Of a stretch of 64,000 nt of DNA, positions 47,315-64,000 are shown piece after piece. Where the stretch lies: positions 28,655,178 to 28,719,177 of the forward strand of contig JAHRHZ010000025.1 in the NCBI GenBank assembly GCA_024137785.1, read 5' to 3'. Origin of the DNA: Ginglymostoma cirratum (Eukaryota). The notes beneath the pieces are model-generated. The model had not been told where the DNA came from, did no database searches, and worked only from the letters and a program-made list of their open reading frames with translations. A program made the position numbers and the translations under genes. How positions within the stretch are numbered: the stretch's first letter is position 1; the number at the start of each line of letters is the position of its first letter.

Positions 47315-48277
47315 TTGACAGGATGCAGAGCTGGACAAAGAAGTGGCAGATGGAATTCAACCCAGGAAGGTGTGAAGTGATTCATTTTGAAAGGTTAAAT
47401 TTGAATGCAGAATACAGGGTTAATGGTAGGATTCTTGGCAGTGTGGAGGAACAGAGGGATCTTGGGGTCCACGTCCATAGATCCCTCAAAGTTGCTACCC
47501 CAATTGATAGGGTTGTAAAGAAGGCATACCATGTGTTGGCTTTCATTGGCAGCGGAATTGAGTTTAAGAGCTGTGAGGTTATGCTGCAGCTCTATAAAAC
47601 CCTGATTAGACCACACTTGGAATACTGTATCAGAGATAATAGGAACTGTAGATGCTGGAGAATCCGAGATAACAAGGTGTCGAGCTGGATGAACACAGCA
47701 GGCCAGGCAGCATCATAGGAGCAAGAAAGCTTGACGTTTTGGGCCTCGACCCTTCAACAGAAAATGTGTTCAGTTCTGGTCGCCTCATTATAGGAAGGAT
47801 GTGGAAGCTTTAGAGAAGGTGCAGAGGAGATTTACCAGGATGCTGCCTGGACTGGAGGGCAGGTCTTATGAGGAAAGGTTGAGGGAACTAAGGCTTTTTT
47901 CATTGGAGAAAAGAAGGATGAGAGGTGACTTGATAGAGGTGTACAAGCTAATGAGAGGCATAGATAGAGTCGATAGCCAGAGACTTTTTCCTGGGGCTGA
48001 AATGACTATTACGAGGTGGCATAATTTTAAGATCATTGGTAGATATAGGGAGATGTCAGAGGTAGGTTCTTTACACAGAGTGGTGGGCGTGTGGAATGCC
48101 CTGCTGGCAGTGGTAGTACGAGTCAGATACTTTAGAGAATTTTAAGTGACTCTTGGAAAGGCACATGGGTGATAGTATACTGTAGGGTATGCAGGATAAT
48201 TTGATCTTAGTAGGATAATAGGTCAGCACAACATTGTGGACTGAAAGGCCTGTATTGTGCTGTACTGTTCTATGTAC
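47315..48277 (+). mobile_element. 5'-truncated CR1 LINE, ORF2 C-terminus and 3' UTR, split by a Penelope-like insertion
   Basis: KWQMEFNPGRCEVIHF...LYKTLIRPHLEYC | VQFWSPHYRKDVEALEKVQRRFTRMLPG. Confidence 0.9.
47630..47764 (-). mobile_element. Penelope-like terminal fragment inserted in CR1
   Basis: same family as 16959/21245; mutated hammerhead core. Confidence 0.75.
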
Positions 48278-49089
48278 TGAAAATTTCCTAAAAATAGTGT
48301 ACACCTGAAACAATAACTATTTTTCTTTCCAGATGTGGTCCAATCTGCTTACTTCCAATGTGGTCTAATTCTACTTCATTTCAAATTGACTTTAAAAAAC
48401 ATGCAGTACCTAATTTTCAGTTTCCAAGTAGCTTGCTAATCCTTCAATCCATTAGGAAAAGAATCTTTATGAGCTGCAATTGTGCCTTTTGTTTTTTAAT
48501 AAAGGCATAAAAAAATTCTTGTGATGCAGTGGTAGTTTCCCATCTTTGGGCTGGAAAGACCAATTCACATCCCAGCTGTTCAGAGATGGATCATGTCTGA
48601 ACAGATTGATTAAAACATTATACAACAAATGGAATTTAGCACCCAAGCCTGAAACTAGCATGAGGCCCCTTCTTTGCATGTGGAAAGACTCTAGCTTGCG
48701 AGGTGCTGGGAGAACTAACTGCATTCGAGATGGAAACACAGAGGAGGTTACAATAATATTTTGTAAAACACTGGATCAGCCAGACTAAAATGCCACATTT
48801 CCCATTATAATGTGAACATGAAGAAATGGCAGAAGTAGCACTCTCTTCCACTTGTGCTGAATGTAACACATTAGGCATGATTAATAAAATGGACCAAGTC
48901 AGTCAGGTATAATTCCAAGAAAATACTCTGACCCCGTGGACACAAAGTCTGTTCTGTTTTGACGTTCAGCCTGTCTGGCAATCTGCACTGCTTATGGCTG
49001 TAACCCCACTACAACATGATCATGTTTCCACATTGACAATTATTCATGAGGCAGGATAAATTATTTATAAAGGAGTCAATGGCCTCCCC

Positions 49090-50030
49090 TGACTTTTTTT
49101 TTTATTTGTTCATGGTGCATGGGCATTGTAGCCTAGGCCAGCATTTATCGACCATCTGCAATTGTCCTATAAGGGGTGATGGTGAACTGCCAGTCAAAAG
49201 ATGTGCAGGTTAGATGGATTGGCTATATGAAATCACACCATAATATCCAGTGATGTGCAGGTTAGGTGGATTAGTGATTGTTAATGCAAGGTAATAGAGA
49301 TGGTAGAGGCATGGATCTGGTTGGGACGCTCTTTGGAGGATTGGTGCAGAGCTGATTTGTTCAATGGCCTCTATCTGCACTGTAGGGCTTCTATGATTCT
49401 TGAACACCTACTATATTGCTAGAAAGGAAATTCCAGGATTTGGACTTGAGTCACAGTAAGGAACAATATAGCTTAAAGTGAGGATGGTGTGTTTGACAGG
49501 ACAATGTACAAGTGGTGCTTTCCACACACCTGCTACTTGTCCTTCAAGATAGTACAGGCCATGGGTTTAGAAGGTGCTGATGCAGTATTGGGGAGATAAT
49601 GCAGTGTGCCTTCTAGGTGGTACACACTGCCGCTATTGAGCTTTGATGAAGGAAATGGCCATTGAACACAGTGGATGGTGAACTGAACAAGCAGCCAACT
49701 TTACCTTGGATGGTATCAACCTTCTTGAATGTTGTTGGAGCTGCATCCACCTAGGCAAGAGTCCTCCATCACACTCCTGATTTGTGCCTTGACGATAGGA
49801 CAACTGACCCACTCTTGCAGTAACAGTACATAGGCAGCAGTTCTTCAGTTTCTGATCAATCATAAGCCACGGAATGTTAATAATGGGGATTTAAGCAATG
49901 GCAATTCCATGAATTATCCAGGAAAGATGACTATTGCTTGACATTGTAAGATCTGAATAAAACCTGTCACTTATCAGCTTAGCATGGCAATTGTCCAGGT
50001 CCTGCAGCACATGGACGTTTACAACTGATA
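49090..50030 (-). mobile_element. 3' fragment of the 36800 LINE family with an HE1 SINE 3' fragment inserted at ~49198-49400
   Basis: cttcttgaatgttgttggagctgcatccacctag is the reverse complement of 38260-38293; poly-T tail at 49094. Confidence 0.6.
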
Positions 50031-50279
50031 CTGAAGCAGTGGTTCTAAATGCAACTCTGATGTAAATTTAGTGCTGTCTGGGAAAACACTAAGTCTATGG
50101 ATTTTCCACCTGCAGAATGCTAGGGAAACTTCACGTACACATACAAACAGGGGCGAGATAGAGGGGACTGCCGAACCTGCCCCCACTTAGTAGGTTCACT
50201 AGATTGATCCTGGGCATGAAATTGAGGGGTTGAGCTTGTACTTTTTGCTGTTTATAAGTTTAACAGACCTTATTGAAAC

Positions 50280-51505
50280 AAAGGATATTTGGGGACCTTT
50301 TGAAGGTAGGTGCATAAATCATATCCACTTTTGGGAGAATCTAAAACCAGAGGGCACAATCTCAAATGGGTTGTCCACGTAAAGTGGAAATAAGAAGAAT
50401 TTTTCTCAAGTAATGCATCTGTGGAATCCTTTACTGGGGAGGACTGTCAACACTGGTTATTAAGAATTTCAGTCCCAGACACTTTTAATGAGCAAAGAAA
50501 TCAATGGTTACGGGAAAAGGAGAGTTTAGGATTAAAAGATCTCAATGAATGATACAGCAAACTCAATAGATTAAACGGCCTAAGCTTGCTCCAATACATT
50601 ATGGCCTTTGTAAATCAATGAGTGTAAGAGGGCAGCAGAGTTTGATAAAGAGCAAACCTGTGTGAAGAAAACAGGGGTAGGAAATAAAGAAAACTGCACC
50701 ATCAGCACTTTCAATCTATTTGAGAAAAAGAGTGAAGTCACATTATTTTGAAAGTGAATTTCCTAAAACTTTCAAAGCAGTTAATGGGTGATGTGTTGCA
50801 GGTACATTATGTGGGAGTTGTGCATGGTGATCACTTGCATCGTGTCGGCTGCCTGAGGAATTCAGTTGAGCTGGAGTGGATACTTTGACTCATCAGGGAG
50901 GGATACCCAGACACTAAAGGAAGCAGTCATATCCCTTAAATTACCTGTATCAGGTTTTAGTCCCTGATGAGAGGCAACAGTGAGGTGAGTACAGGATGCA
51001 CAAGTTATACTGCAGCTATACAAAGCCCTTGTCAGACCCCACTTGGTACTCAGCATATCTGTGCAGCACACTTTCGGAAGGAATATTGTCTTAGATGGCA
51101 TACAATGCAGGCTTGCAAGAATAAATGACACCAGGTCTTCAGGGGTTAAATTTCAGGTGTGATTATACAATTTAAACAGATTTAACTGAAGAGGATCATA
51201 GTCATCAAAATATTAACAGGAAAAGTGTAAAACATATTTCCATTGGCTGCAGTTTCTAGAACCAGGAGCACTGTCTAAGAATTAGGGCTAGACCATTTAG
51301 GAAAGAGGAAGCATTCAGACAGGAGTGGTCAAGGCTTGTAACTTCTAAAAATGGTGGTTGATACAAGATCCTTTTGAAAAATTAACTTTTTTGCTCGAAG
51401 ATATTATAGAACATGGGTGGTATGTCAAATTAGGCCACAGATCAGCCATGATCTCAAAAATGGTAGAACAGGCTCAAGGGGCTGAATGACCAACTGCTGT
51501 TTTAT
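50280..51505 (+). mobile_element. two degenerate CR1 3' fragments
   Basis: ctatacaaagcccttgtcagaccccacttgg and gatcagccatgatctc...aggctcaaggggctgaatg CR1 motifs. Confidence 0.55.
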
Positions 51506-51659
51506 ATTGCTACCTTGTTGGGATGTGATAATACATATTAATATTCATGCTTTGCTGGAATAATCTTCCAGATGCCTAATGCCAGAGCCCAAAGTATCCT
51601 GGGTGACCCAAGAAAGATTGAGGCAATTGCTTATTATCTCAATAAGTGCAAATAAAAGC

Positions 51660-51759
51660 AAAGTTGAGTCAAAACAAATTTTATTTTAAAGAATGCATCA
51701 AATACGTCAATGCTGCACCCAAGGTGAATATTCCAGGTTCTCCTCCTCCAAACACGATC
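51660..51759 (-). other. SFPQ: candidate distal terminal exon of an alternative SFPQ transcript
   Basis: tttttttcattctcttactag| acceptor, AATAAA at 51680-51685 followed by T/GT-rich sequence. Confidence 0.6.
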
Positions 51760-52368
51760 CTAGTAAGAGAATGAAAAAAATGTCAGGTCTGAGGATTTAT
51801 TCGTTTTAAACAGTCCACCACAGACATTTGCCTGCCACAGTAGATTCAACTTTGCAATGCAGATGGTCAAAAAATGAGTTAATTGAAAAATAAATCTCTC
51901 TTGCTTTAAAAAAGTCAAATGATCTAGCAGATGTTAGAATGACCTGGGTTCAACCTCAGTAACAAACATGGCAGATGAATACTAAAGGCATTTAGCCCTC
52001 CGACTGGAGGCTTTCAAAATCTTATCGTGACTTAAGCATGCTGCGGAATGTTTAGCTGCAAAGCATATACCCGGACTATTTCAGAAGCTAGTTTATTGCT
52101 GATATGGAGATAATATTAGGACACCTTAAAAAGGTGAGCAAACCAAAGCAAGCAGAACTTGTCATAACATTCATACTGTATGAAGTCAGCAGCTCAAGTT
52201 GTGTCTCAACTCTACCCAAGACAAAAGACCCCAATTTAGTTTAGCTGCCAAGCCCATGTAAATATTGGTTATATTCAAACCCACATGATACACACACAGT
52301 AGTGACAAATGCAAGATTGGAGGAAAACAAACCAAAAGAGGCCCCTAGGAACAAATCAGAACACCTAC

Positions 52369-52498
52369 CTTTTCAGAAATATCCCAGAATGCATCCATGT
52401 CCTTCAACTTTTGCACAACTCTATGCACCCTCACTCTTTCATTTCTGGTGACTGACCAGATGTGAAAAACATTCTGGTTTTATCACATTTCACAGGAG
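52369..52498 (-). other. SFPQ: candidate downstream non-coding SFPQ exon (130 nt)
   Basis: very strong acceptor (T-run, C-run, tcacttgcag|) and AAG|gtaggt donor; stop codons present. Confidence 0.62.
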
Positions 52499-52979
52499 CT
52501 GCAAGTGAGGGGGGAAAAAAAAAAAACATTGTCGGAAGCATACCCTTATTTACTAGCTGAACAGGCTCCATATTGTTTATTCACAAAGCTAGGAAATCAA
52601 TTATAGTTTGATACTCAGGTTAACAATCAACTCAGCAGACAGGGAATAGCAATAATGCCATAAGAAACCCTGCTCACAGCAAAAGTCCAACAATCTTAAT
52701 TTGAGGATGATCATATGCAAGGGGAAACATGAGGAACACCACAAAATTCAGAGTGTTATTCCGAATCTCACCTCTGAAGGAAATCTGAACATTCTATGTA
52801 ATGGAAGGCCTGAAACCTTTATGTCAACCTGTCTGATACCTTGCTGCACACACCCCTTTAGGAGTGGGGGCAGTGCTAGCAGGATCACTAGTGTCAAGGC
52901 CACAAGTCATTTTCAAAAACATTTGGGGATCTGCAATTCTACAACAAGTGCTTGGAAATTTACTGTTTAAGATTCTTGA

Positions 52980-53465
52980 AGATTTATAGCTCAGGGTGTG
53001 GAGGTGGTTGCTGGTTTGCTCACTGAGCTAGCTGGTTGTCATACCTGTTTTGTAACCATGCTAGCTAACATCACTGCGGCCTCTGATGAAGCGATGTTGT
53101 TCTAGTCCCCTTGGCATTTATCTGATGTGGTCTATTAAGTTGGGTTGTCTCATTTCTGGTTCAGTTCTGCACACTTTCATATGCAATCCAATTCCACATG
53201 TTTGTTGATTGCATTACAGGTTGAAAACCAGGCCTCTAGGAATTCCTGTGCATGTCCATGGCTGGCTGGAGCTAAAATAGTCAAACAGATGCAGAACAAA
53301 ACCAGAAATCAGGCAACCTAACTTAACAGACTGGATCATATACATACCAAGCAGAGTAGAATGATATTGCTTCATCGGAGGCCGCACTGATGACGTTACC
53401 TAGACTGGTGACAAAACATCTGCATGATAACCAGCCAGCTTGGCGAGCAAGCCAACAACCTCATG
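52980..53465 (-). mobile_element. Penelope-like element remnant: GIY-YIG endonuclease C-terminus flanked by inverted termini
   Basis: minus frame HAQEFLEAWFSTCNAINKHVELDCI (PLE EN C-terminal motif); arms ~53005-53105 and ~53355-53460 are inverted. Confidence 0.75.
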
Positions 53466-56086
53466 ACAAGATGGTCTCCAAAGTACTAACGTCAAGCAAC
53501 ATGATTTATGTTTCAGACAGATACTGCAGCATGAACTGATCAAATAGCTACTTACTTGCATCTTTACTGCATCAGAGTTTCAACATGCATCAAGCCCTTT
53601 CCATGCCTAAAGGAAATACAACAAGTTAATAAATACTTATCACTCCAATGCACAGCAATTCTCAACTCAGTTCTACAATAACCCAAAAGGTCAGATTACT
53701 TCAGAATAGCCATGCAAATCTATCCCAGATGTAGACCTGGAATAGAAAGGCTGACTGAACCCCTAACAGCCTGCGTGGTGCTGTAACTATTAATATTTTA
53801 TGGGGCCAGAATAGAAGAGCTGAAGTCAAAATTAAGGGTACATACAATTCATCCAAACTGTAAACATTTCAGTGGTTAGCCAGAAAAGTACAGTATATTT
53901 TTACTGACTAGTCTGACAACCCTACAGAAAAGATGCAAAATATGCATTTGTGCTTTAGGCCCAACTTTTCCTAAACTAGTACACTAGTGAAAAATTCTCA
54001 GCATAAGAGGATTAAACTTGCTGTTAATGCTAAAGCTTTGGACAGGCCAATTAACAGCTGACCAAGTTGGCACAAAAATGCCTAATCAGGCATGATTGCA
54101 TAGACGGGAAACTACACCCACATCTTGGAACACAATATTCTAGCCTATTTTGCAACACTGAAAGAACATGTACCACATATCCCTATTATGTTCTGGCATC
54201 ACTTTTCTGAACAGACATTCTAGTCAAAAATTGAAGCCAATTGCACTGGGAAAGCTCAGGCACACAAGAATTTAGATGGAATACAGTGTAGACACTTTGC
54301 TACTAAGTTTTAATCCCACTTGCAAGTCCAGTGCAATAAGATGAAACATCACTTCCGCTCGAGGGACAAGCCACTGATGACATTTACACAAGAAAAAGCA
54401 TTTAATTGCTTGGTCTACAGATTTGCTAAAATTTGACCTAACAGACAAGTTACATCTCCCATAAATGGAATACAAATAGCAAATATTATAGGTTCAAGAC
54501 CTGGAGCAAGACCAATCTTGCAGTTAGACCTGTGGAACAAGCTGCAATTTACACAGATTTTAAAGGAATGGTGCCAAAATCCTAGCATTGCAGTAAGACA
54601 GAATTCTAGTGGCACAAGACTGGAAAACATTAGTCCCAGACCACGTTTTTCATATCTGTACCACCCCAGGACTAGAACTTCACAGCATTTCATTTCATCT
54701 AAAGCAGCTGAACAACTAAGCAATCAATAGCAACACCAATATTCTTGATTTGGTTAGCCATCTCTAGGCAATTTCAGGGATAACTGGCACAAAATTTTAA
54801 TCAGCTCATTCAGTCACGTTATGACACCTCTGGAGCTCGCAGGACTTCAATTCAGACCTCAAATTTATACAACAAATGCCTTCACCACACTTTACACTTG
54901 ATACTGATGGTGATCCATTGTGATATAATACAGGTCAACTTTATGCTCTGAATTGATTATCAAGCCTCCTTTGATTAAAATTCAAAAACAAACTAATTTA
55001 GTGAATGAAGCCCAAAGCAATACAATTAGGCTATGGCCTAATTCAATTGCACATATACAAAGTGAACTTTAACTATTATTCATGAAATGCCTGAATAGGC
55101 AAATGGACAGCACAGAGCCTAAGGACTTAGTTTCTACTGAAATATCAAAGGATTCCATTGTATTTGTTCTGATCAGAATCCTAGATACACTTGAAACCCA
55201 AGCAGTGAAAATTCATCACATTTACAGTATTTCAATCTTCACTACATGTTTAAATCTGTCATACGGCTCTGTGGTAAACATCTTACACATAGGTACACAA
55301 GGTCTGGTCTCAGGGATTTCAGGTCAGATAACTCAATGGCAAAGATTGCTGGCAGTTAGTCATTGCAAGCTGGCTTGGTAAAACTGAAACTAAGTAATTT
55401 GTCCAGTCTCCAAGCTAAGCCAAAAATACAAGCGTAACACCAAATACAATAAGTCACTATATAATAGTTATGCATTTGATGGGTAGGTGTCTGATGGAGA
55501 TTCAAGAGGAAGTGAAAAGTTTTTCTAATCCCCAGCACAGTTCCCCAAACCCAAGTAGGCGTACCAAGTTACCATCTCATTTATACAATGCAGGCAACTG
55601 CCCAAATAGTCATGGCGTTTTAGTTTTGCAAGTATTATCTATGGTGCTAAATGGCCTGGAGTACATTTATTCATTATATACAAGTAGATCACATTGCTGC
55701 TTTGTAGATGTTCTGGCAAAGCTTGAAAGTGCACAGTATGTAAAAAGACAAGTTTAAATACTAAACCACAACCTTCCTGTTCACGGTCTAAGTCACAGCT
55801 TTGTTCAGCTCAAAAAAAGGTACAAGGCAGAAAGCGCAACTACCCACTGTTGATAATTCAAGGTGCCAGTGAAGTGTCAATGTTGTGACTGCAGTATTCA
55901 AAAAGTGCATACTAGCTGTACATCATTTGGGCCATTATACTCTGATACCAAATCAGTATTCACTGGTAACAGCCCAACCGTAAGTGGTACACTGTATTTC
56001 CACAGTCAGAAAGGTGATGCCCGAACCATTATACTCATCTTTAAGAAATTACGAAAGACATTTGTTAACAAGTTATTTGTACATAC

Positions 56087-56348
56087 CTGTATGCAGTCTT
56101 TATTGTGTAACGCAGAACAAGCAGGAATACTATTCTCCAGGTCTTACTGCCCAATCCCATTTGCAGTACTACAGATCCTCAATGCAATGTATTGCAGACA
56201 AGCTGACTGTATTTATTCACTGTAGAGCGGCATTACTTGCAAGGATGCAGCACAATTGGCTGCCAGCAGCCGCTTGCTGGCTTGTAACTCAGATGCGTTG
56301 CCATGTAACCTGAGAATCTGAAACTGTTATAACTGCCACTGAAGAATA
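56087..56348 (-). other. possible downstream non-coding SFPQ exon
   Basis: cttgtcttccccag| acceptor, CAG|gtatgt donor; internal AATAAA; pairing of these sites is uncertain. Confidence 0.3.
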
Positions 56349-57237
56349 CTGGGGAAGACAAGTTATTTCAAGTTGTGCCCAAACTTAGTGGGCATTGCAA
56401 ATTCAGCACCTAAATGCCTAAACAGCAACAGCTAAATCTTTGTATTCAGATTAGCCAATACCATAAATCAAATTCAAAGATGTGAAATATGTTGTTTAAA
56501 AAGCGGGGCATTTAACTTGACAGGTGTTCATGAAATTATACTGCAGGCATCTCATGCAGTATTTTGATTTAAGTTGAAATTCAATATTATGTAGAAAGGG
56601 CATTTCAAAAAATAGCTCGAGTACTGCTTGCACAGCCTAAATTGTTAAAACACCCAAAACAAAGGACTAATTTAATACAAATTCAGGTCTCTAGCTGCAA
56701 GTATATCACAAAGCTAGTTTTTCAAATTTGAGGTGAACCCTTAGGCTTTCACCCACAGCTGAATAAGCCAAACCAACTTTGTTTATGATGGATTCCATGT
56801 TCAAATACAGCAACTCTGCCAAGGAACGGCAATGAAAATTATTGCAAGTTTGCAAAGGTTATCCAACAGGAAATCAGAGCAGCTGCTCATTCAAACCCCC
56901 ACCAGCTCACAGAGTAATTTTATAGTTGCACACTTATTTTGCCAGAAGTCAAATTTGATGGACCAATACCAGATTCTGTACTAAAGAAATATTTAGGCAT
57001 AAAGGACTTATGGAATGTCAGATTAAAATTAAGCCTTGCTCCAATCAAAGAAACTACACTCAAAGAAACTTAAAACCCACCATCCCGGAATTTAGAACTT
57101 CTGATCTTGGATTACAATAATTGCTCAGTATATTAATTCTCAAGATTGAAATTAAAGTGGAGAGCAGCATCTAAAGGCACGATTTGTTTCTACGTCCAAA
57201 CCCCCATCCCCACACACAAATAAGTTTTAACACTTAC

Positions 57238-57320
57238 CATTATCACAATCCTAAAGCAGCAATTTTGACACTGCATGCTACTGCTTGGTTCCAGTTACCC
57301 ATCGAAGCTGTTCAGCTTCT
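57238..57320 (-). other. SFPQ: candidate downstream alternative SFPQ exon (83 nt, early stop AGA AGC TGA in phase 0)
   Basis: cttctgtaccctctgcctag| acceptor and ATG|gtaagt consensus donor. Confidence 0.6.
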
Positions 57321-59449
57321 CTAGGCAGAGGGTACAGAAGTCACGTTCTGGTAGTCCGGGTATCCTGATGCAAATTCATTCCTACTGAGTACATCTGCAG
57401 CTCATCTTGCTACTGGTTTCCAATTGTGACTTTCCAATCAGAATTCCCATTCACAAACGCAGAATGGCCAAATTTTCCAAAACTCAAGGTTAAACTTCCA
57501 TAAAAGTTATTGGTTGAGGAGCCCAAGTTGGGTCAGAAGGTTTAAACAAAAGCACTGTGGACCATTAACTGCAAGTCTTTTAAGTGATCATGTTTCATGA
57601 CATATGAAGTTCATTTAGAAGTTAAAACTGTTTAGATGTCCTATCACATGCAAGATCCTGTCCCAATTTTTCAGCACTACTGCCCAAAACTGAAAGACCC
57701 TATTACAGCCAAGTTACTTAAAAGAACTCCCAACTCCAGCTATGATTCCATAATTAGCAATGTGTTGATGCAATAGAATCATGCACTGAACAGTGGTATA
57801 AGATTTATCTTAAGTACTCGTACTCTTAGTATATAGATTTTACACACCTTACTATATTGTCTAGCCCGACCAAAAAAACCACCACTTTCATCAGGATTGC
57901 TCAGTTTGCAGAGTTGCTATTTGTAACTGGGATATTGCCATTCCAGGTTTCTTGCTGTTAATCTGACAAGACTCGACGTATTGGTTTACAGACCTAGCAC
58001 TCAACACTTAGTGTCTAACTTGACTGGTTATTGGTTGCTATATTCAACATCTCAGGCACTTCAAGCCAGATGAGTAATGCAGTTTTTAAATAAGCCACTT
58101 AGGAATTCAATACACTGAACAATGGAGTGTAGTTTTGTTGCAAAACATGTTTTTAATAGGCTTGAACTTAGGCCAGCGGTGATGTTTCAAATTCTGCCAT
58201 GTGGCCGAGCAAGATCAAATTTCAGTGATTTAAAATGGACCCAAATAATAAAGAAGTGAAACACGCTATTTTGGTATTCCATGTATTCTGGAAAGATACT
58301 GTAGCAATTAGATCAAAATCAAGATAAGCATTCATTTAGAGAAGTCTATCCAATACACTGAGAATTATGCACATCACCTGTGAGGCCTGTTTGAGCTCTA
58401 ATCAGATGTGCCACTGCCGTGAGGACAAATCCAAGCAAGTAAGCTGTTAAACTGACTTCATTCACAAAACCTGAAAATGAACAACTTTGTCCTTTTCCAA
58501 ATACAAAGGAAGGTGGTAACAAGTGTCTGATTGCCCACCACAAATCTAAATGCAAAAACTGTTGTATATCCTTGGACTATGGACCAAGTGAACCAAGGAT
58601 AATCCTTGGGTTGTGCCAACCAACACAGTCAATAGTACAGCACTGCAATGGAGTTTACATCTATGGATTGACAAGGGAAAATTGTCAGCCAAAGCTCCTG
58701 ATCATCTAGTAACCCTTAATTATGCAAAAATTGTGCAGGGAAATCAAGCTTGGCTTCAAAATTAAACAGTTTCACCACAATCTAAATTCTCATGAGTCAC
58801 TTGACATTGATGCCCAGGGCACTGCTGGTAATCATAGCTTCTCAGCACGAAAGACCTTCTGAAGAGAAAGTTGCAATAAGTTGTGAACAGAAGAGGAAGA
58901 AAAATTTGAAATACAGGTGTGCTTTGCATAATCAGTCAAAACACAGTTAACATGTTTTGTAGTACCAGCTACAATAGAACCTTCCTTGTCCCAATATCTA
59001 TTTCAGAACATGCAAACCAAGATAGAATCGCCAGAATGTCAGTAGACTTCATCCCACCCCAGCATAGACTGGATTTGACTGCCAAAAACACTTCTGGGAA
59101 GAAAAGGAAAATCTTTTACAAAATACAAACGTTAGAACAATCCAGCCTATATCCAAAACTGAAGCCACAAAAATTTAAAAGAAAATCAATTCTTCCAGTT
59201 AACACAAGCCAATTAGGTGGCAATTTAAATGTAAATGGGTCCAGAAATTTCAGCACTGCAGTTTTAAGTTTCACAAGATCTTTTCCAAGACCTAGATTCA
59301 CCCCCTCTGTGTGGCATTAAGACACGATACAAAGCTAGCCAAAGTAAAAAAAGTTTAAAAAACCAAACTCAGGCCTAAAATTGGTACAACTTAAAATACA
59401 AGATAATAAATAACCATGACTAAAGGTTTTGTTTTCAGTGCACTTAGTT

Positions 59450-60005
59450 TCCATTGGAATCTTACCTTATTTTATTAAACAACTCCAATAAGTGATACAC
59501 AAGAGTTTGCAAACATTAGTAAATGCAACACTTGGTCTCACTTAGCAACCAGAGAAGTTGACAACTATGCTGCGACTTTGCTCAGTTAAAAAATCATTTC
59601 AAAATCATGAACACTATGAATGGGTTTTAATTTAAAAAGACGCACCAAAATACAGAATGCCACCATTTCAAAACAGGCTTTTAGCCTACACAATTTAACA
59701 TGCTTCTAAAACAATTCAGAACAAAAAAAATACATGGAGCATACTTTCTAGAGATTTAATGGCACGTCAGCGTACACAGTCAAAAGTACTGGGAAAAGAT
59801 GCCTATGTGCACTATCACTGTTGTTTGACATAATTCAACATTCATAATGTGCCAGCGTGACTTGTTACAGTTTACAAAGTTTTATCAATACACAAATCTA
59901 TATAGGCATAAAATGCAACTTTGCCACCAACTAAAAAAACGCAAGAATGAAGAGTTCAAGTCTAAATGAAAGACTAATCTGGAATGCACTACAGCACTAT
60001 GAATT
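59450..60005 (-). other. SFPQ: SFPQ canonical 3' UTR with poly(A) signal AATAAA at 59471-59476
   Basis: AU/U-rich sequence after the stop; TTTATT on + at 59471-59476; 3' end approximate. Confidence 0.6.
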
Positions 60006-60140
60006 CTAAAATCTAGGCTTCTTTCCGCCTGCTTCATATTCTTCTCTCCCTCTACTAAAACTAGGCCCAGTAGGCCCCATAGGACGGGGGGGCTGAGCAT
60101 TCATTGGACCTGGGGCTCCCTGTCCAAAGCGGTCATTACG
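60006..60140 (-). CDS. SFPQ: SFPQ last coding exon, RNDRFGQGAPGPMNAQPPRPMGPTGPSFSRGREEYEAGGKKPRF*
   Basis: ctctcccaatag| acceptor, 44 codons + TAG; homologous to the SFPQ C-terminus RTERFGQGG...GRGREEYEGPNKKPRF including the terminal NLS; missed by the ORF track. Confidence 0.97.
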   Translation of the reverse strand, partial: RNDRFGQGAPGPMNAQPPRPMGPTGPSFSRGREEYEAGGKKPRF

Positions 60141-60352
60141 CTATTGGGAGAGATTTTAAAAAGTTCATCATACATGAAAGCATTCAATGTCCATTAAGTT
60201 GCACGCGACAAAGTGAGTAAAATGTGTAACATTAGGTCAGGGAAGACATCCGCAGTCAATGTTCGTCGATTACAACCAGGAATGGGGCGATCCACAGGTA
60301 CCAGGCACATAAAAAGAAAAAAAGAGGGCAAGTTGTTCATTAGTTTACTGAC

Positions 60353-60397
60353 CGGTACATGGAGGAATCCAAGGTGGGTATAATCCTCCCATGACGA
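60353..60397 (-). other. SFPQ: candidate alternative micro-exon in SFPQ last intron (45 nt in frame, SSWEDYTHLGFLHVP; or 55 nt from acceptor at 60407)
   Basis: donor CCG|gtcagt at 60352; two AAG acceptors (cacaag|, gttcttaag|); CpG-containing, non-repetitive block. Confidence 0.5.
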
Positions 60398-62527
60398 CTT
60401 GTGATAACTTAAGAACAGTGGCTATTTGCTTGTAGTGCAAGCAAACCACTATTATCAACACAGGAATGCATTCAAATATGCACAAGTCTGATATGGGTTG
60501 ATAGATATATTTACATTATCATAACAATCTCCACATCATAGTTTTTCAGAGATGCAGAGCTTTAACACTTCAAGTTAAATAGCCTCTGCCCTTAATGAAA
60601 GTCACAAGTAACCAACTTATCCCAACCCACCTTTTCCCCATTTTAAATGCAAGCTGACCAATGATCCAGTATTGTTGTACATGTTCTGCAAATTTTCAAG
60701 TAATGCAGTGGCTGCTGAGCATAAGGATTTGACAGTACAAAGCTAAACTTTAGACAACTTCCACTAGTTAAAGCACCAGAAGAATGCGTACATCTCCCTG
60801 TGTTAGGGAGTCACTCTTTAATGCATGTTGGTTTGGATTAATTAGGAGAAACTTGACTACACTGATTATTTTTATTCCAGCAGGCAAGAAAATTTATAGT
60901 TACAGTACAGCACAAGTACGACAACACTGGATCAGCATTACTATTAAAGTTTAACTGGGTAAAAATGTATACTCTACAAAACATTACTCATTAAGTGCAA
61001 AAAGGTAATAGGACATTCCCTCAATGTTCAGTTTAAAATGCCTAACGTAATTTTACCACTTGCACAATACACCTCAAACTGAGGTTGAGCAACTGGGTTT
61101 GCCATGACCAATGGCACATTGATGTGCTAAGGGAGGGCACTCTTATAATCCCTCCTTCACTCAAAAGCAGTTTTCATTGTGGCAAGACAGCCAAACTAAG
61201 GCTGGCAAACACTCAGAAGACCAGAGGATTTTAACAAGTTGCAATGTGTTAATGTGGCAGCATTAGTACTAACCATCCCACTCACAATCGGAACATTAAA
61301 ACCTAATCAATCATTGATTATCTAAAGCAATCAGTGCTCACCTCCCTCGTATGCCACCCAAAGTGTGCCACATAGTCACAAACTATCAAATCAAACTGAC
61401 TGCATCACTTCACTGTACTAAACCAAACAGACGGTCAGAATCAGTTTTTTGATGCAAGGAGATGAGATTAGACAGCAAGGTGAACAGCTCAACCATTGCA
61501 GATACAATAGGACAACTGGCTTTTTCTCATGTTCCAATATGCAAAACTACATGGCTGCCCACTTCAAATGAAAGATCATCTGCAATGCAGAAGAGTTATT
61601 GTCATTACAATACTGCCTAATTTATTTTGATAAAAGCACCACTTATTGTGCAAACACATTGTTCTAGGTTTAGTTTACACTAGCAGCTGCAAATGCCAGC
61701 CTTCAGATCGGAAACTGGAATTTTACTGCAATTTCCCGCAGAACAGGAATTGGTAACTTATCAATGTGCTAAGGTAAAACAAACTTCTATCATGCAAGCC
61801 TTTCTTCCTTAGTACTCAAGTGACCAGTTTCAATCTGGATCAAGATGCCAGTCAGACCAGTCATCAGTAACCCAATAACGGCTTGGGAAGTTTACGTTAA
61901 CCTAGAATAAATCACTTATGTATCTGATCTGCCTCAACATACCCATCTCAAGCACACAAACTATTGTCTGCCCTAAGACTGTAAACAAAACATTGACTGG
62001 CAAACCAGGTTAGGCAAGTAGTTATTTCAAGTTTTAAAACATGCAATTTTGCAATTTGTTGCAGTGTATGCATGTTCTTGATCATTTCACTTGTAATAAG
62101 TATTGAAACTAATGTTGACACAGTTAGACTTCAGGAGTTGTAAATAACAATTAGACCACAGTGATCAGATGGCATGACATAAAGCATCTGATTAGTCTGT
62201 CTGCATTGATGATCAGATTAACATATCACAACTAAGTGCACATTCCTGAAACTGAATCCTCCCACAAAATCCATGCTGAAACAGCATTGCTTATGGTAGC
62301 TTATTCAAGCTGCCTCTACAGTCTGTTATTTTGGTACTTTGTTTCAATAAGTAATTAAGCTTTTGCTAAAACAAGCGTTCCCACCCCTCCAGTCCTTAGT
62401 ATCCTTGTACATTTAGTTGTTCCAAGATCCCAACAAGCCTTTTCTTCATACCATACACACACATTCATTTCACTTTGCAATCCAACCATACATCCAAGCA
62501 TTCACTCCTAACCACAGTACACTTTAC

Positions 62528-62673
62528 CCCTGCTATGTCGCTGGTGTTTCCACTGTTGCCCATCATCTGTCCAGTCATTGCACTTGGTCCTCCAGGGCTA
62601 TTCATTGCACTGTGACCTTCATAGCCCATTGCTGCCATTGGTGGGAAGCTTTGGTTTGTAGCAGCATATTGTT
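62528..62673 (-). CDS. SFPQ: SFPQ penultimate coding exon, (E)QYAATNQSFPPMAAMGYEGHSAMNSPGGPSAMTGQMMGNSGNTSDIAG
   Basis: tttacatttcag| acceptor, GGG|gtaaag donor; 146 nt, phase 1 to 0; resembles SFPQ ...FPP...GYE...MSGSMMGSDM segment. Confidence 0.92.
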
Positions 62674-62831
62674 CTGAAATGTAAAAGCATACGTTCAAGT
62701 TTTTCCATGAGCAGTGATGGAACAGACACTAGAAATGGTTACTCTGTTTACAATCAAAAGCCAGGTACTGGAATACTGAAAAGGAATTATGGTATTCAAA
62801 TTACTAACAAACAATTCAGATTGCATCTTAC

Positions 62832-62868
62832 CTGCCATTCCTCCAGCCATGCGCATGTCACGTTCTCT
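62832..62868 (-). CDS. SFPQ: SFPQ coding exon (antepenultimate), RERDMRMAGGMA+G
   Basis: ttctctcttcag|AGAGAACGTGACATGCGCATG...GCAG|gtaaga; 37 nt; matches the RERDMRM motif of vertebrate SFPQ; phase 1 end fits the next exon. Confidence 0.93.
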
Positions 62869-64000
62869 CTGAAGAGAGAAATTTCAGCAATGAATACCAA
62901 GACAACTATTAATTTTTCAGTTTGAATTATAATTCAGACAATGAAGAGCTGACCAAGTCTTGTTTAATTGTAATACTAGTCACCAAATACACAAGCCAAA
63001 GTAAATTTGAATGGTTTCTTAAACTGACCAATTTGGAGCATAATTGCATCTGAAGCACTTCCGTTGCAATGCGCACACATTTCTTGCAAACTGTCAGGAC
63101 TACAAAGGGACTTGCTTTTGAAATCCGTGAAATCAAGGATTGTTCAGTACTGAGTGGCCAACTAAGCTAACCATTCACATTTGATGTGTCAGAGGTACAA
63201 AATGCAAGCAAAAAAGTGAAATATAAATTATACCTAAATATGATACTGCCCAGGCAGTTGAGGCTTCAGTATATTCAAATTTTCTCACCACCACTGAAAG
63301 GATCAGCAATTTCAGAAACATAACTGAAAATTAAATTTTCACTAAGGACATAATTTCCATCTCAAAGGCAATTATAATGGTGGCTGACCTAAAATCCATT
63401 CCAAATAGTATTCCACAGGGCTTGCAACAAAAGATCCAAGTGTAATCTGCAATCTTAGCATGAAGAAATTTCAGGATGAAGACTCAGGAGTTTGAGAGAT
63501 CCAGTAACTTCTACTCCTGGTGGTTACTTTTATGCCCAAAACTAGGCACCTCTGAAACAGCAGTGCACAACACACCTCAATTATCAACAGCAACATTGTC
63601 GAAAGGACCAACGTAATTTACAGTCTCAAAGGCAGAAACCAATGGCAATTTTCACCAGAACACAATCTGTCAGTTCAATCTTTTGGTCAATTACTGGCAC
63701 AAGGACCCAAATCCAAATCTGAGACTAAAGCAGCATCTACTGGGCAGCAGGACTGATAGCACTGTAGTATCCATTAGTGCCATCACGAAATTTTTCCAAA
63801 TCTGGTGCTAAGAAACAACACCTGGTAAGTTCCCAAACCAGCCTACCCAAAACAACTCAAAATCAAATTCTGCTGGATGGGACTCTTCAATCACAAGCAC
63901 CCAGGCTCAAAGCAACTCACTGAATGTTGTTGTAGGAAACTTGCGGACAGGACATTGAAATTCTTTGTGAACGAAGCATCCCCAGAAAGGCCAAAAGTAG

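Follow-up and report, generated by a model that had tools for sequence, protein, structure and literature searches.

The SFPQ locus and its two 3' ends

The window, a 64,000-nucleotide stretch of the Ginglymostoma cirratum genome, contains SFPQ on the minus strand. The host gene had been predicted to be SFPQ, and this is confirmed by the RRM2 exon, which scores 185.9 bits to SFPQ vs 167.5 to NONO and 166.3 to PSPC1, and by exon 1, which is 98% identical to SFPQ of Rhincodon and Stegostoma. The canonical last exon holds 44 codons ending in KKPRF, with a stop near 60006 and an AATAAA at 59476; its 3' end was placed from this hexamer and a drop in read depth. The features of the 3' half of the locus are as follows.

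62832..62868, minus strand: SFPQ exon 8 (numbering by analogy with human), 62832 to 62673 spliced in 280 reads, translation RERDMRMAGGMA
62528..62673, minus strand: SFPQ exon 9, donor 62528 in phase 0, 98% identical to Stegostoma SFPQ
59455..60140, minus strand: canonical last exon, 62528 to 60140 spliced in 159 reads
57238..57320, minus strand: originally predicted cassette, strong splice signals, single copy, a pseudo-exon or minor exon
56087, minus strand: minor donor spliced to 53606, 16 reads with 10 starts
53556..53606, minus strand: first alternative exon, 51 nt, 41 junction reads, single genome match
53010..53480, no strand assigned: a high-copy repeat present as two inverted copies (genome search, 6535 candidates)
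53045..53271, minus strand: optional repeat-derived non-coding cassette, 227 nt, with a second acceptor at 53404
52369..52498, minus strand: non-coding exon, 130 nt, read junctions, single copy, its donor being the junction 154 nt after the stop
51665..51759, minus strand: terminal non-coding exon, 72 junction reads, poly(A) loose end and read ends, single copy

The alternative distal 3' end of SFPQ in Ginglymostoma cirratum is real, and consists of a spliced message in which the last exon is swapped out. The first alternative exon encodes AWKGLDAC, followed by a TGA at 53582-53580 and a further 24 nt. The product ends DIAG-AWKGLDAC*, which replaces the 44 residues ending in KKPRF, so that the NLS motif is gone and an altered localisation is predicted. 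The exon junctions lie 24 and 154 nt past the stop, or 24, 251 and 381 nt when the repeat cassette is included, and the terminal exon carries an AATAAA at 51685-51680. The layout is that of altSFPQ: two introns past the stop, one junction over 50 nt from it and a distal poly(A) site.

Each of 57320-57238, 53606-53556, 52498-52369 and 51759-51665 has one match in the genome. A repeat origin of these exons is therefore ruled out, only 53000-53500 being repeat, and a search of 50000-64000 against Rfam gave no matches at the gathering score. The inverted repeat copies are predicted to form a long hairpin (MFE -227.7 vs -124.8 for 20 mononucleotide shuffles), and in RNA reads some A positions of the SFPQ strand within 53024-53441 are partly changed to G, likely by A-to-I editing. 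The repeat cassette is spliced from 53556 to 53271 in 27 reads, from 53556 to 53404 in 8 reads and from 53045 to 52498 in 51 reads.

RNA support for the distal chain

RNA reads support both splice choices of exon 9, the junctions further down the chain and the poly(A) site at its end. Junctions were counted in one raw-read poly(A) run of the same species (X21, chosen by its species label), of which about 24% was sampled. The best 15 of 43 junctions were considered, and the chain was joined by overlapping junctions rather than by single long reads. Two further studies, X1 and X2, have contigs that carry parts of the distal chain. In another run, X22, 27 reads mapped, all of them on a repeat, with no reads on SFPQ. 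Judged by library labels, none of the 22 runs listed comes from shark RNA with NMD perturbed.

From donor 62528, 159 reads lead to 60140 and 41 (35 starts) to 53606, the latter junction also being found in a contig of X2. The distal share at this donor is 20.5% (95% CI 15-27%), where mates are perhaps double-counted. Such a steady-state share of about 20% is high for an NMD target; the human values in HEK293T cells are 2.23 vs 42.86 puncta per cell (PMC12372870). Further down the chain, 53556 is joined to 52498 in 66 reads and in contigs of X1 and X2, and 52369 to 51759 in 72 reads (40 starts) and in a contig of X1. All nine SFPQ joints among the best 15 of 43 are GT-AG and lie on the minus strand. 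The poly(A) site at 51664-51668 is marked by a loose end of 19 T in X1 and by read ends in X21, and the genome is not A-rich there. In one X2 contig (51732-52498) the last intron is unspliced, which would leave only the junction at 24 nt past the stop.

The original prediction, made from the DNA alone, described a chain of three cassettes. All three are found with their splice signals on the minus strand, the last with its AATAAA at 51685. Exons 52498-52369 and 51759 onward are used, as the 66 and 72 junction reads show, and polyadenylation, expected near 51660, is located at 51664-51668 by the loose end and read ends. The claim that the NLS-bearing last exon is dropped, leaving junctions past the stop, is borne out by the 62528 to 53606 reads and the downstream splices. 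The chain also belongs to SFPQ, as proposed, and not to an independent transcript, since it is spliced to exon 9 in 41 reads.

The role given to 57320-57238 as the first exon does not hold. The best 15 of 43 joints include none at 57320 or 57238, and donor 62528 instead goes to 53606, in an exon absent from the original prediction. The RNA-seq check on junctions in poly(A) reads thus recovered two of the three cassettes. Exon 9 joined to 57320 would indeed read RS*, as had been stated, but the RNA gives AWKGLDAC*. As the main route this splice is rejected, being absent from the best 15 of 43 joints and matched by an RS-type end in 0 of 198 stored proteins. A loose end of X2 at 57307 did not match the end of exon 9. 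Under a strict consensus splice filter, the region 59400-51600 yields 4 acceptors on 3 donors (57320, 53736 and 53606, 52498), and 14 control stretches of equal length yield 0-3 each. Chance is therefore expected to give about one strong-looking cassette in 7.8 kb. The cassette 57320-57238 may be of this kind; it may also see minor use as an exon.

Conservation of the first alternative exon

The DIAG-AWKGLDAC end is identical in SFPQ isoform X2 of Rhincodon typus (XP_048469226.1) and Stegostoma tigrinum (XP_048414015.1), so the annotation of close relatives already includes the first alternative exon. Read-through into intron 9 was rejected as the source of the annotated tail, as its translation would be VKCTVV...*. 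Close variants of AWKGLDAC occur in seven more sharks and rays (nine species in all), among which the tail differs by only 1-2 nucleotides; chimaera has a related tail. A non-canonical SFPQ end is present in 14 of 46 cartilaginous-fish records and in 12 of the 22 named species. The first alternative exon is kept in sharks and rays, and likely in chimaera. In skates the tail is down to AW* or A*, an argument that the splice event is more important than the peptide. The two downstream non-coding exons are known from Ginglymostoma cirratum, the species whose genome and RNA junctions the analysis covered.

Bony vertebrates have short tails at the same exon-9 boundary, and the sequences of these are unrelated. 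The tail comparison left out long, fused and VMYP/VTYP-type ends as probable intron read-through or gene-model artefacts, judged from the protein sequences. Cartilaginous fishes and nine ray-finned species with short tails agree in a tail length of eight codons (chance 0.037). For a first set of ten bony-vertebrate tails, picked after viewing, 27 of 1673 null sequences were as close (frog p=0.004, Bos p=0.07). This signal was not replicated in 11 fresh tails, for which 396 of 1659 null sequences were as close. Homology of the shark first exon to the mammalian exon is thus supported by two features, position and tail length. The originally proposed "ancient" isoform is in this way sustained across the cartilaginous fishes by its first exon, but its link to mammals goes no further than these two features.

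Probable regulation by the distal message and relation to human altSFPQ

The EJC rule for NMD holds in zebrafish and mammals. The shark distal message, with a junction 154 nt past the stop, is by this rule a predicted NMD substrate. In zebrafish, EJC-dependent NMD works at distances of 50 nt or more (PMC7310861). In humans, altSFPQ arises by splicing of exon 9 to exon 11, has seven unique residues and no NLS, and carries a PTC followed by two introns (PMC12372870). It rises 20-fold with cycloheximide, and it rises on SFPQ overexpression (PMC12372870). Its decay by NMD has been demonstrated, and it contributes to the autoregulation of SFPQ (PMC12372870; also PMC6547761, PMC12586192).

Exon 9 is spliced either to the usual last exon or to the distal chain of 53606-53556, 52498-52369 and 51759 to the poly(A) site. 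We consider it probable that the distal form, a predicted NMD target, serves negative autoregulation of SFPQ as human altSFPQ does. Donor 62528 is the decision point between the proximal last exon and the distal chain. With the distal choice, the protein ends eight residues on and lacks the NLS motif, and the message would enter NMD through the junctions downstream of the stop. On the model of the human gene only, we infer that excess SFPQ may favour skipping of the proximal exon and its poly(A) site. Messages that escape decay could give a cytoplasm-leaning SFPQ in which the RRM, NOPS and coiled-coil regions are kept.

A stable short SFPQ in non-mammals is a speculation of PMC12372870, and the distal isoform could be mainly a stable, productive mRNA for an NLS-less protein, while its decay in sharks would be weak or incidental. 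The share of 20% that the distal junction has in poly(A) RNA, the near-constant eight-residue tail (1-2 nucleotides) in sharks and rays, the RefSeq models of the isoform as protein-coding in several species, the X2 contig that keeps the last intron and the translation of human altSFPQ all point this way. We find it unlikely, as 72 reads support the splice that places a junction 154 nt past the stop, the tail is shortened in skates and has no conserved sequence in bony vertebrates, and close kin share sequence in any case. Still less likely is that most distal splicing takes place in long transcripts, which would keep the last exon or the whole intron, pass the proximal poly(A) site and be spliced from 53556 on, as 3' UTR-intron or nucleus-detained RNAs, with exon-10 skipping as a side product. 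Among the best 15 of 43 joints, 101 reads are spliced out of 53556 vs 57 into 53606; however, 3' bias and the 51-nt length of the exon lower the upstream count. The poly(A) depth of 41-74 over 52005-56006 vs 83 in the canonical UTR bin, and contig 12 of X2, which is unspliced from 60140 to 53578 and joined to exon 9, also fit long transcripts. However, contigs are not single molecules, and 41 reads tie exon 9 straight to 53606. Such long transcripts would also be NMD or detention substrates, so they add to the autoregulatory reading more than they replace it.

A reading of the exons as noise from the splicing of read-through RNA, or as an independent non-coding transcript, is very improbable and largely refuted. 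Cassettes of this kind occur about once per 7.8 kb by chance, 57320-57238 possibly among them, and one cassette is repeat-derived. However, the chain is spliced to exon 9 of SFPQ, is abundant, recurs in data of three studies and ends at a defined poly(A) site, and its first exon is conserved in sharks and rays, and probably in chimaera too.

The shark SFPQ isoform is the counterpart of human altSFPQ (ENST00000470472 / NR_136703.2). The two downstream exons of altSFPQ are said to have arisen in mammals (PMC12372870), and it was proposed that a protein role came first, with decay and autoregulation added later through these mammal-specific exons (PMC12372870). The shark layout of a stop followed by two introns challenges this order, as the layout is either ancestral or has arisen twice, and it suggests that the likely self-limiting SFPQ switch did not originate in mammals. 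It is quite possible, although we would not call it probable, that an NMD-coupled distal 3' end is older than the divergence of sharks from bony vertebrates. The ancestor of jawed vertebrates would then already have had the exon-9 switch, a stop some eight codons on and the decay-triggering introns; the non-coding exons would have been replaced by lineage, and autoregulation would be the original role rather than a mammalian addition to a stable short protein. In such an ancestral scenario, the lineage of this shark would still be gaining a repeat-derived, likely edited cassette. The evolutionary order is now testable for SFPQ, whose alternative form is raised in ALS and FTLD-TDP. A literature search, judged by titles and the opening of abstracts and with most subscription papers outside its scope, found no report of a shark SFPQ alternative 3' end, and none on the evolution of NMD-linked unproductive splicing in cartilaginous fishes. 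As the mechanism is known and the first exon is in RefSeq for related sharks, the gain is in evolutionary depth and not in a new system.

Human and shark share the gene, the exon-9 donor, a distal exon that replaces the NLS-bearing last exon, a short tail (7 residues in human, 8 in shark), a PTC followed by two introns, a distal poly(A) site and coexistence with intron-retaining RNA. The tail sequences differ, e.g., VRMIDVG in Bos and AWKGLDAC in shark; NMD and autoregulation are shown for human altSFPQ but predicted in the shark, which has two downstream exons of its own and alone adds an optional repeat-derived cassette. Isoform X2 of Rhincodon typus and Stegostoma tigrinum is an automatic protein model, known by its protein end and with no regulatory role attached. 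A wider parallel is the SRSF5-type AS-NMD of Lareau and Brenner (PMC4379411), where a splicing factor likewise combines an old PTC-generating choice with sequence turnover. There the choice is an internal ultraconserved poison exon, while in shark SFPQ it is an alternative last-exon chain.

Distal 3' end of SFPQ

The window end cuts the minus-strand gene, whose other exons follow on the contig within 4 kb. Its RRM2 exon scores highest against SFPQ (185.9 bits, vs 167.5 for NONO and 166.3 for PSPC1), and exon 1 is identical to SFPQ at 201/205 positions in Rhincodon and 200/205 in Stegostoma, which points to a carpet shark. Upstream of SFPQ, L006:2256-4415 (minus strand) has broken reverse-transcriptase-like frames that resemble a Penelope-type retroelement. 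The exon numbering is borrowed from human SFPQ.

62673-62528, minus strand: SFPQ exon 9, phase-0 end after DIAG
From 60140, minus strand: canonical last exon, C-terminus ...KKPRF*

RNA mapping covered 4 of 22 runs. Junction counts are from X21, a run of poly(A) raw reads with the same species label; X22 gave no usable information. All eight junctions are GT-AG on the SFPQ strand.

SFPQ junctions in X21 (about 24% of the run sampled; mates possibly counted twice)
62528->60140, minus: exon 9 to canonical last exon, 159 reads
62528->53606, minus: exon 9 to first distal exon, 41 reads, 35 starts
56087->53606, minus: minor donor, 16 reads
53556->52498, minus: 66 reads
53556->53271, minus: 27 reads
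53556->53404, minus: 8 reads
53045->52498, minus: 51 reads
52369->51759, minus: 72 reads

Of the 200 reads spliced from the exon-9 donor, 41 take the distal route (95% CI 15-27%). Two other studies presumed to be RNA, X1 and X2, have contigs that repeat parts of the distal chain. Exon 52498-52369 is entered from 53556 by 66 reads and left to 51759 by 72. The terminal exon from 51759, with its AATAAA, is also used. Its poly(A) site is placed by a loose end of 19 T (51664) together with read ends (51668) and lies some 12-16 nt beyond AATAAA, where the local sequence is not A-rich. RNA depth is close to zero over 50004-51337. Outside SFPQ, a repeat cluster at 47336-48300 (word depth >100,000 in contigs) draws reads from elsewhere.

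The original prediction of an alternative SFPQ 3' end is borne out by the reads, including its last two exons, while its first exon, 57320-57238, is corrected to 53606-53556. Among the best 15 of 43 joints, none is at 57320 or 57238, and the distal exon joined there to the exon-9 donor is 53606 (41 reads), in place of the proposed 62528->57320 splice with its RS* tail; an RS-type tail ends 0 of 198 stored proteins. The three proposed cassettes are all found in the sequence as described. Our own strict consensus filter (at least 14/20 pyrimidines, at least 5/6 donor positions) gives four acceptors on three donors in 59400-51600, whereas the 14 control stretches have 0-3 apiece. When the filter is relaxed, the region shows no enrichment over the controls; therefore, real exons are not identifiable from sequence alone. 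The strict filter also recovers 53606-53556, overlooked originally. The minor donor at 56087 has eight candidate acceptors within 400 nt upstream.

Coding outcome, retained introns and probable editing

Exon 9 joined to 53606 translates to an AWKGLDAC* tail, which takes the place of 44 residues including KKPRF, the C-terminal NLS in human SFPQ (PMC12372870, excerpted text). The stop-to-junction distances are 24 and 154 nt, or 24, 251 and 381 nt with the optional 227-nt cassette (53271-53045). Because the 52369->51759 splice lies beyond the minimum of the NMD rule (at least 50 nt), which according to the excerpted text of PMC7310861 holds in zebrafish, the distal isoform is an NMD candidate. 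NMD and autoregulation of shark SFPQ are inferred to be likely.

Other observations complicate this reading. An X2 contig keeps the last intron (52369->51759) unspliced, 101 reads leave 53556 vs 57 that enter 53606 through the listed junctions, and the depth of 41-74 across 52005-56006 comes near the 83 of the canonical UTR. Therefore, long read-through or intron-retaining RNAs form a substantial class. Poly(A) RNA depth is high over 52005-60140, between the canonical and distal exons, and is lower the farther a position lies from the distal poly(A) site. Intron 9 (60141-62527) has a poly(A) RNA depth of about 15-18 plus X2 contig coverage; its retention would encode VKCTVVRSECLDVWLDCKVK*, a layout that resembles the human intron-9-retaining form.

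The distal intron also contains a high-copy repeat in two inverted copies (53010-53480), whose predicted long hairpin has an energy of -227.7 kcal/mol vs a shuffle mean of -124.8 (n=20). Within this pair, the plus strand shows partial T>C changes at eight sites, which are A>G in SFPQ RNA, and four of them pair with U in the predicted fold; judged from the RNA reads, they are likely A-to-I editing. The cassette is exonised, with its donor and acceptors inside the repeat pair, which could tune splicing or nuclear retention.

Tails in other vertebrates

The SFPQ records of cartilaginous fishes number 46 and come from 22 named species, with two unnamed records in addition; 14 of them, from 12 species, have non-canonical ends.

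SFPQ tails
AWKGLDAC: Rhincodon, Stegostoma
AWKELDAC: Heptranchias, two Mobula, Hemitrygon, Hypanus
AWKELDAR: Narcine
ARKALDAC: Rhinoraja
AW*, A* or MVALDAC: Amblyraja
A*: Leucoraja
GWEDPGVC: Callorhinchus
VRMIDVG: Bos (669 aa)
VKMMQAE: turtles
VWNLETG: frog

The four elasmobranch tails tested differ from the window exon by 1-2 nucleotide changes and the chimaera tail by seven (p=0.002 vs 1673 G-initial null sequences). Judged from protein records, the Amblyraja tails fit a one-base shift that shortened the peptide, with the exon still used. Separately, isoform X1 exceeds X2 by seven residues in the ray and skate records P0013, P0027, P0034 and P0041 (in P0013, WVLKNQV follows NPMYQK), which suggests that the NOPS region of batoids has a small alternative exon or a shifted donor.

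Among further bony-vertebrate matches, 41/105 have non-canonical ends, and many of these are tails of 6-8 residues at the boundary seen in the shark; longer or fused ends were left out of the tail comparison. Ray-finned short tails (9 species) have eight residues in every case (the chance of eight codons after an AG is 0.037), and coelacanth tails have five and six. In Amia, the tail is a separate exon, because one tail joins two different upstream exons. The similarity of the shark exon to the first 10 bony-vertebrate tails looked significant (27/1673 null sequences equally close) and was not significant on a fresh set of 11 (396/1659). Homology of the distal exon across jawed vertebrates is putative, argued from position and length.

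Comparison with human altSFPQ

In the excerpted text of PMC12372870, human altSFPQ, the alternative 3'-end isoform, arises by an exon 9-to-11 splice, has seven unique residues and no NLS, and carries a PTC followed by two introns. It is NMD-sensitive, promoted by SFPQ overexpression and also translated; excerpts of PMC6547761 and PMC12586192 concur that it is subject to NMD and uses a distal poly(A) site. The same text of PMC12372870 calls its first distal exon well conserved, places the origin of the two downstream exons in mammals and speculates that the non-mammalian transcript is stable. Unproductive splicing can be ancient and also re-evolve repeatedly (PMC4379411, excerpted text). Among the papers listed by our literature search, none reports the shark isoform.

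All altSFPQ structural features tested are present at the shark locus, apart from sequence homology, on which the two tail sets disagree (27/1673; 396/1659). The distal chain is the shark counterpart of altSFPQ, and downstream introns of the kind described in the excerpted text of PMC12372870 as mammal-specific exist in a shark.
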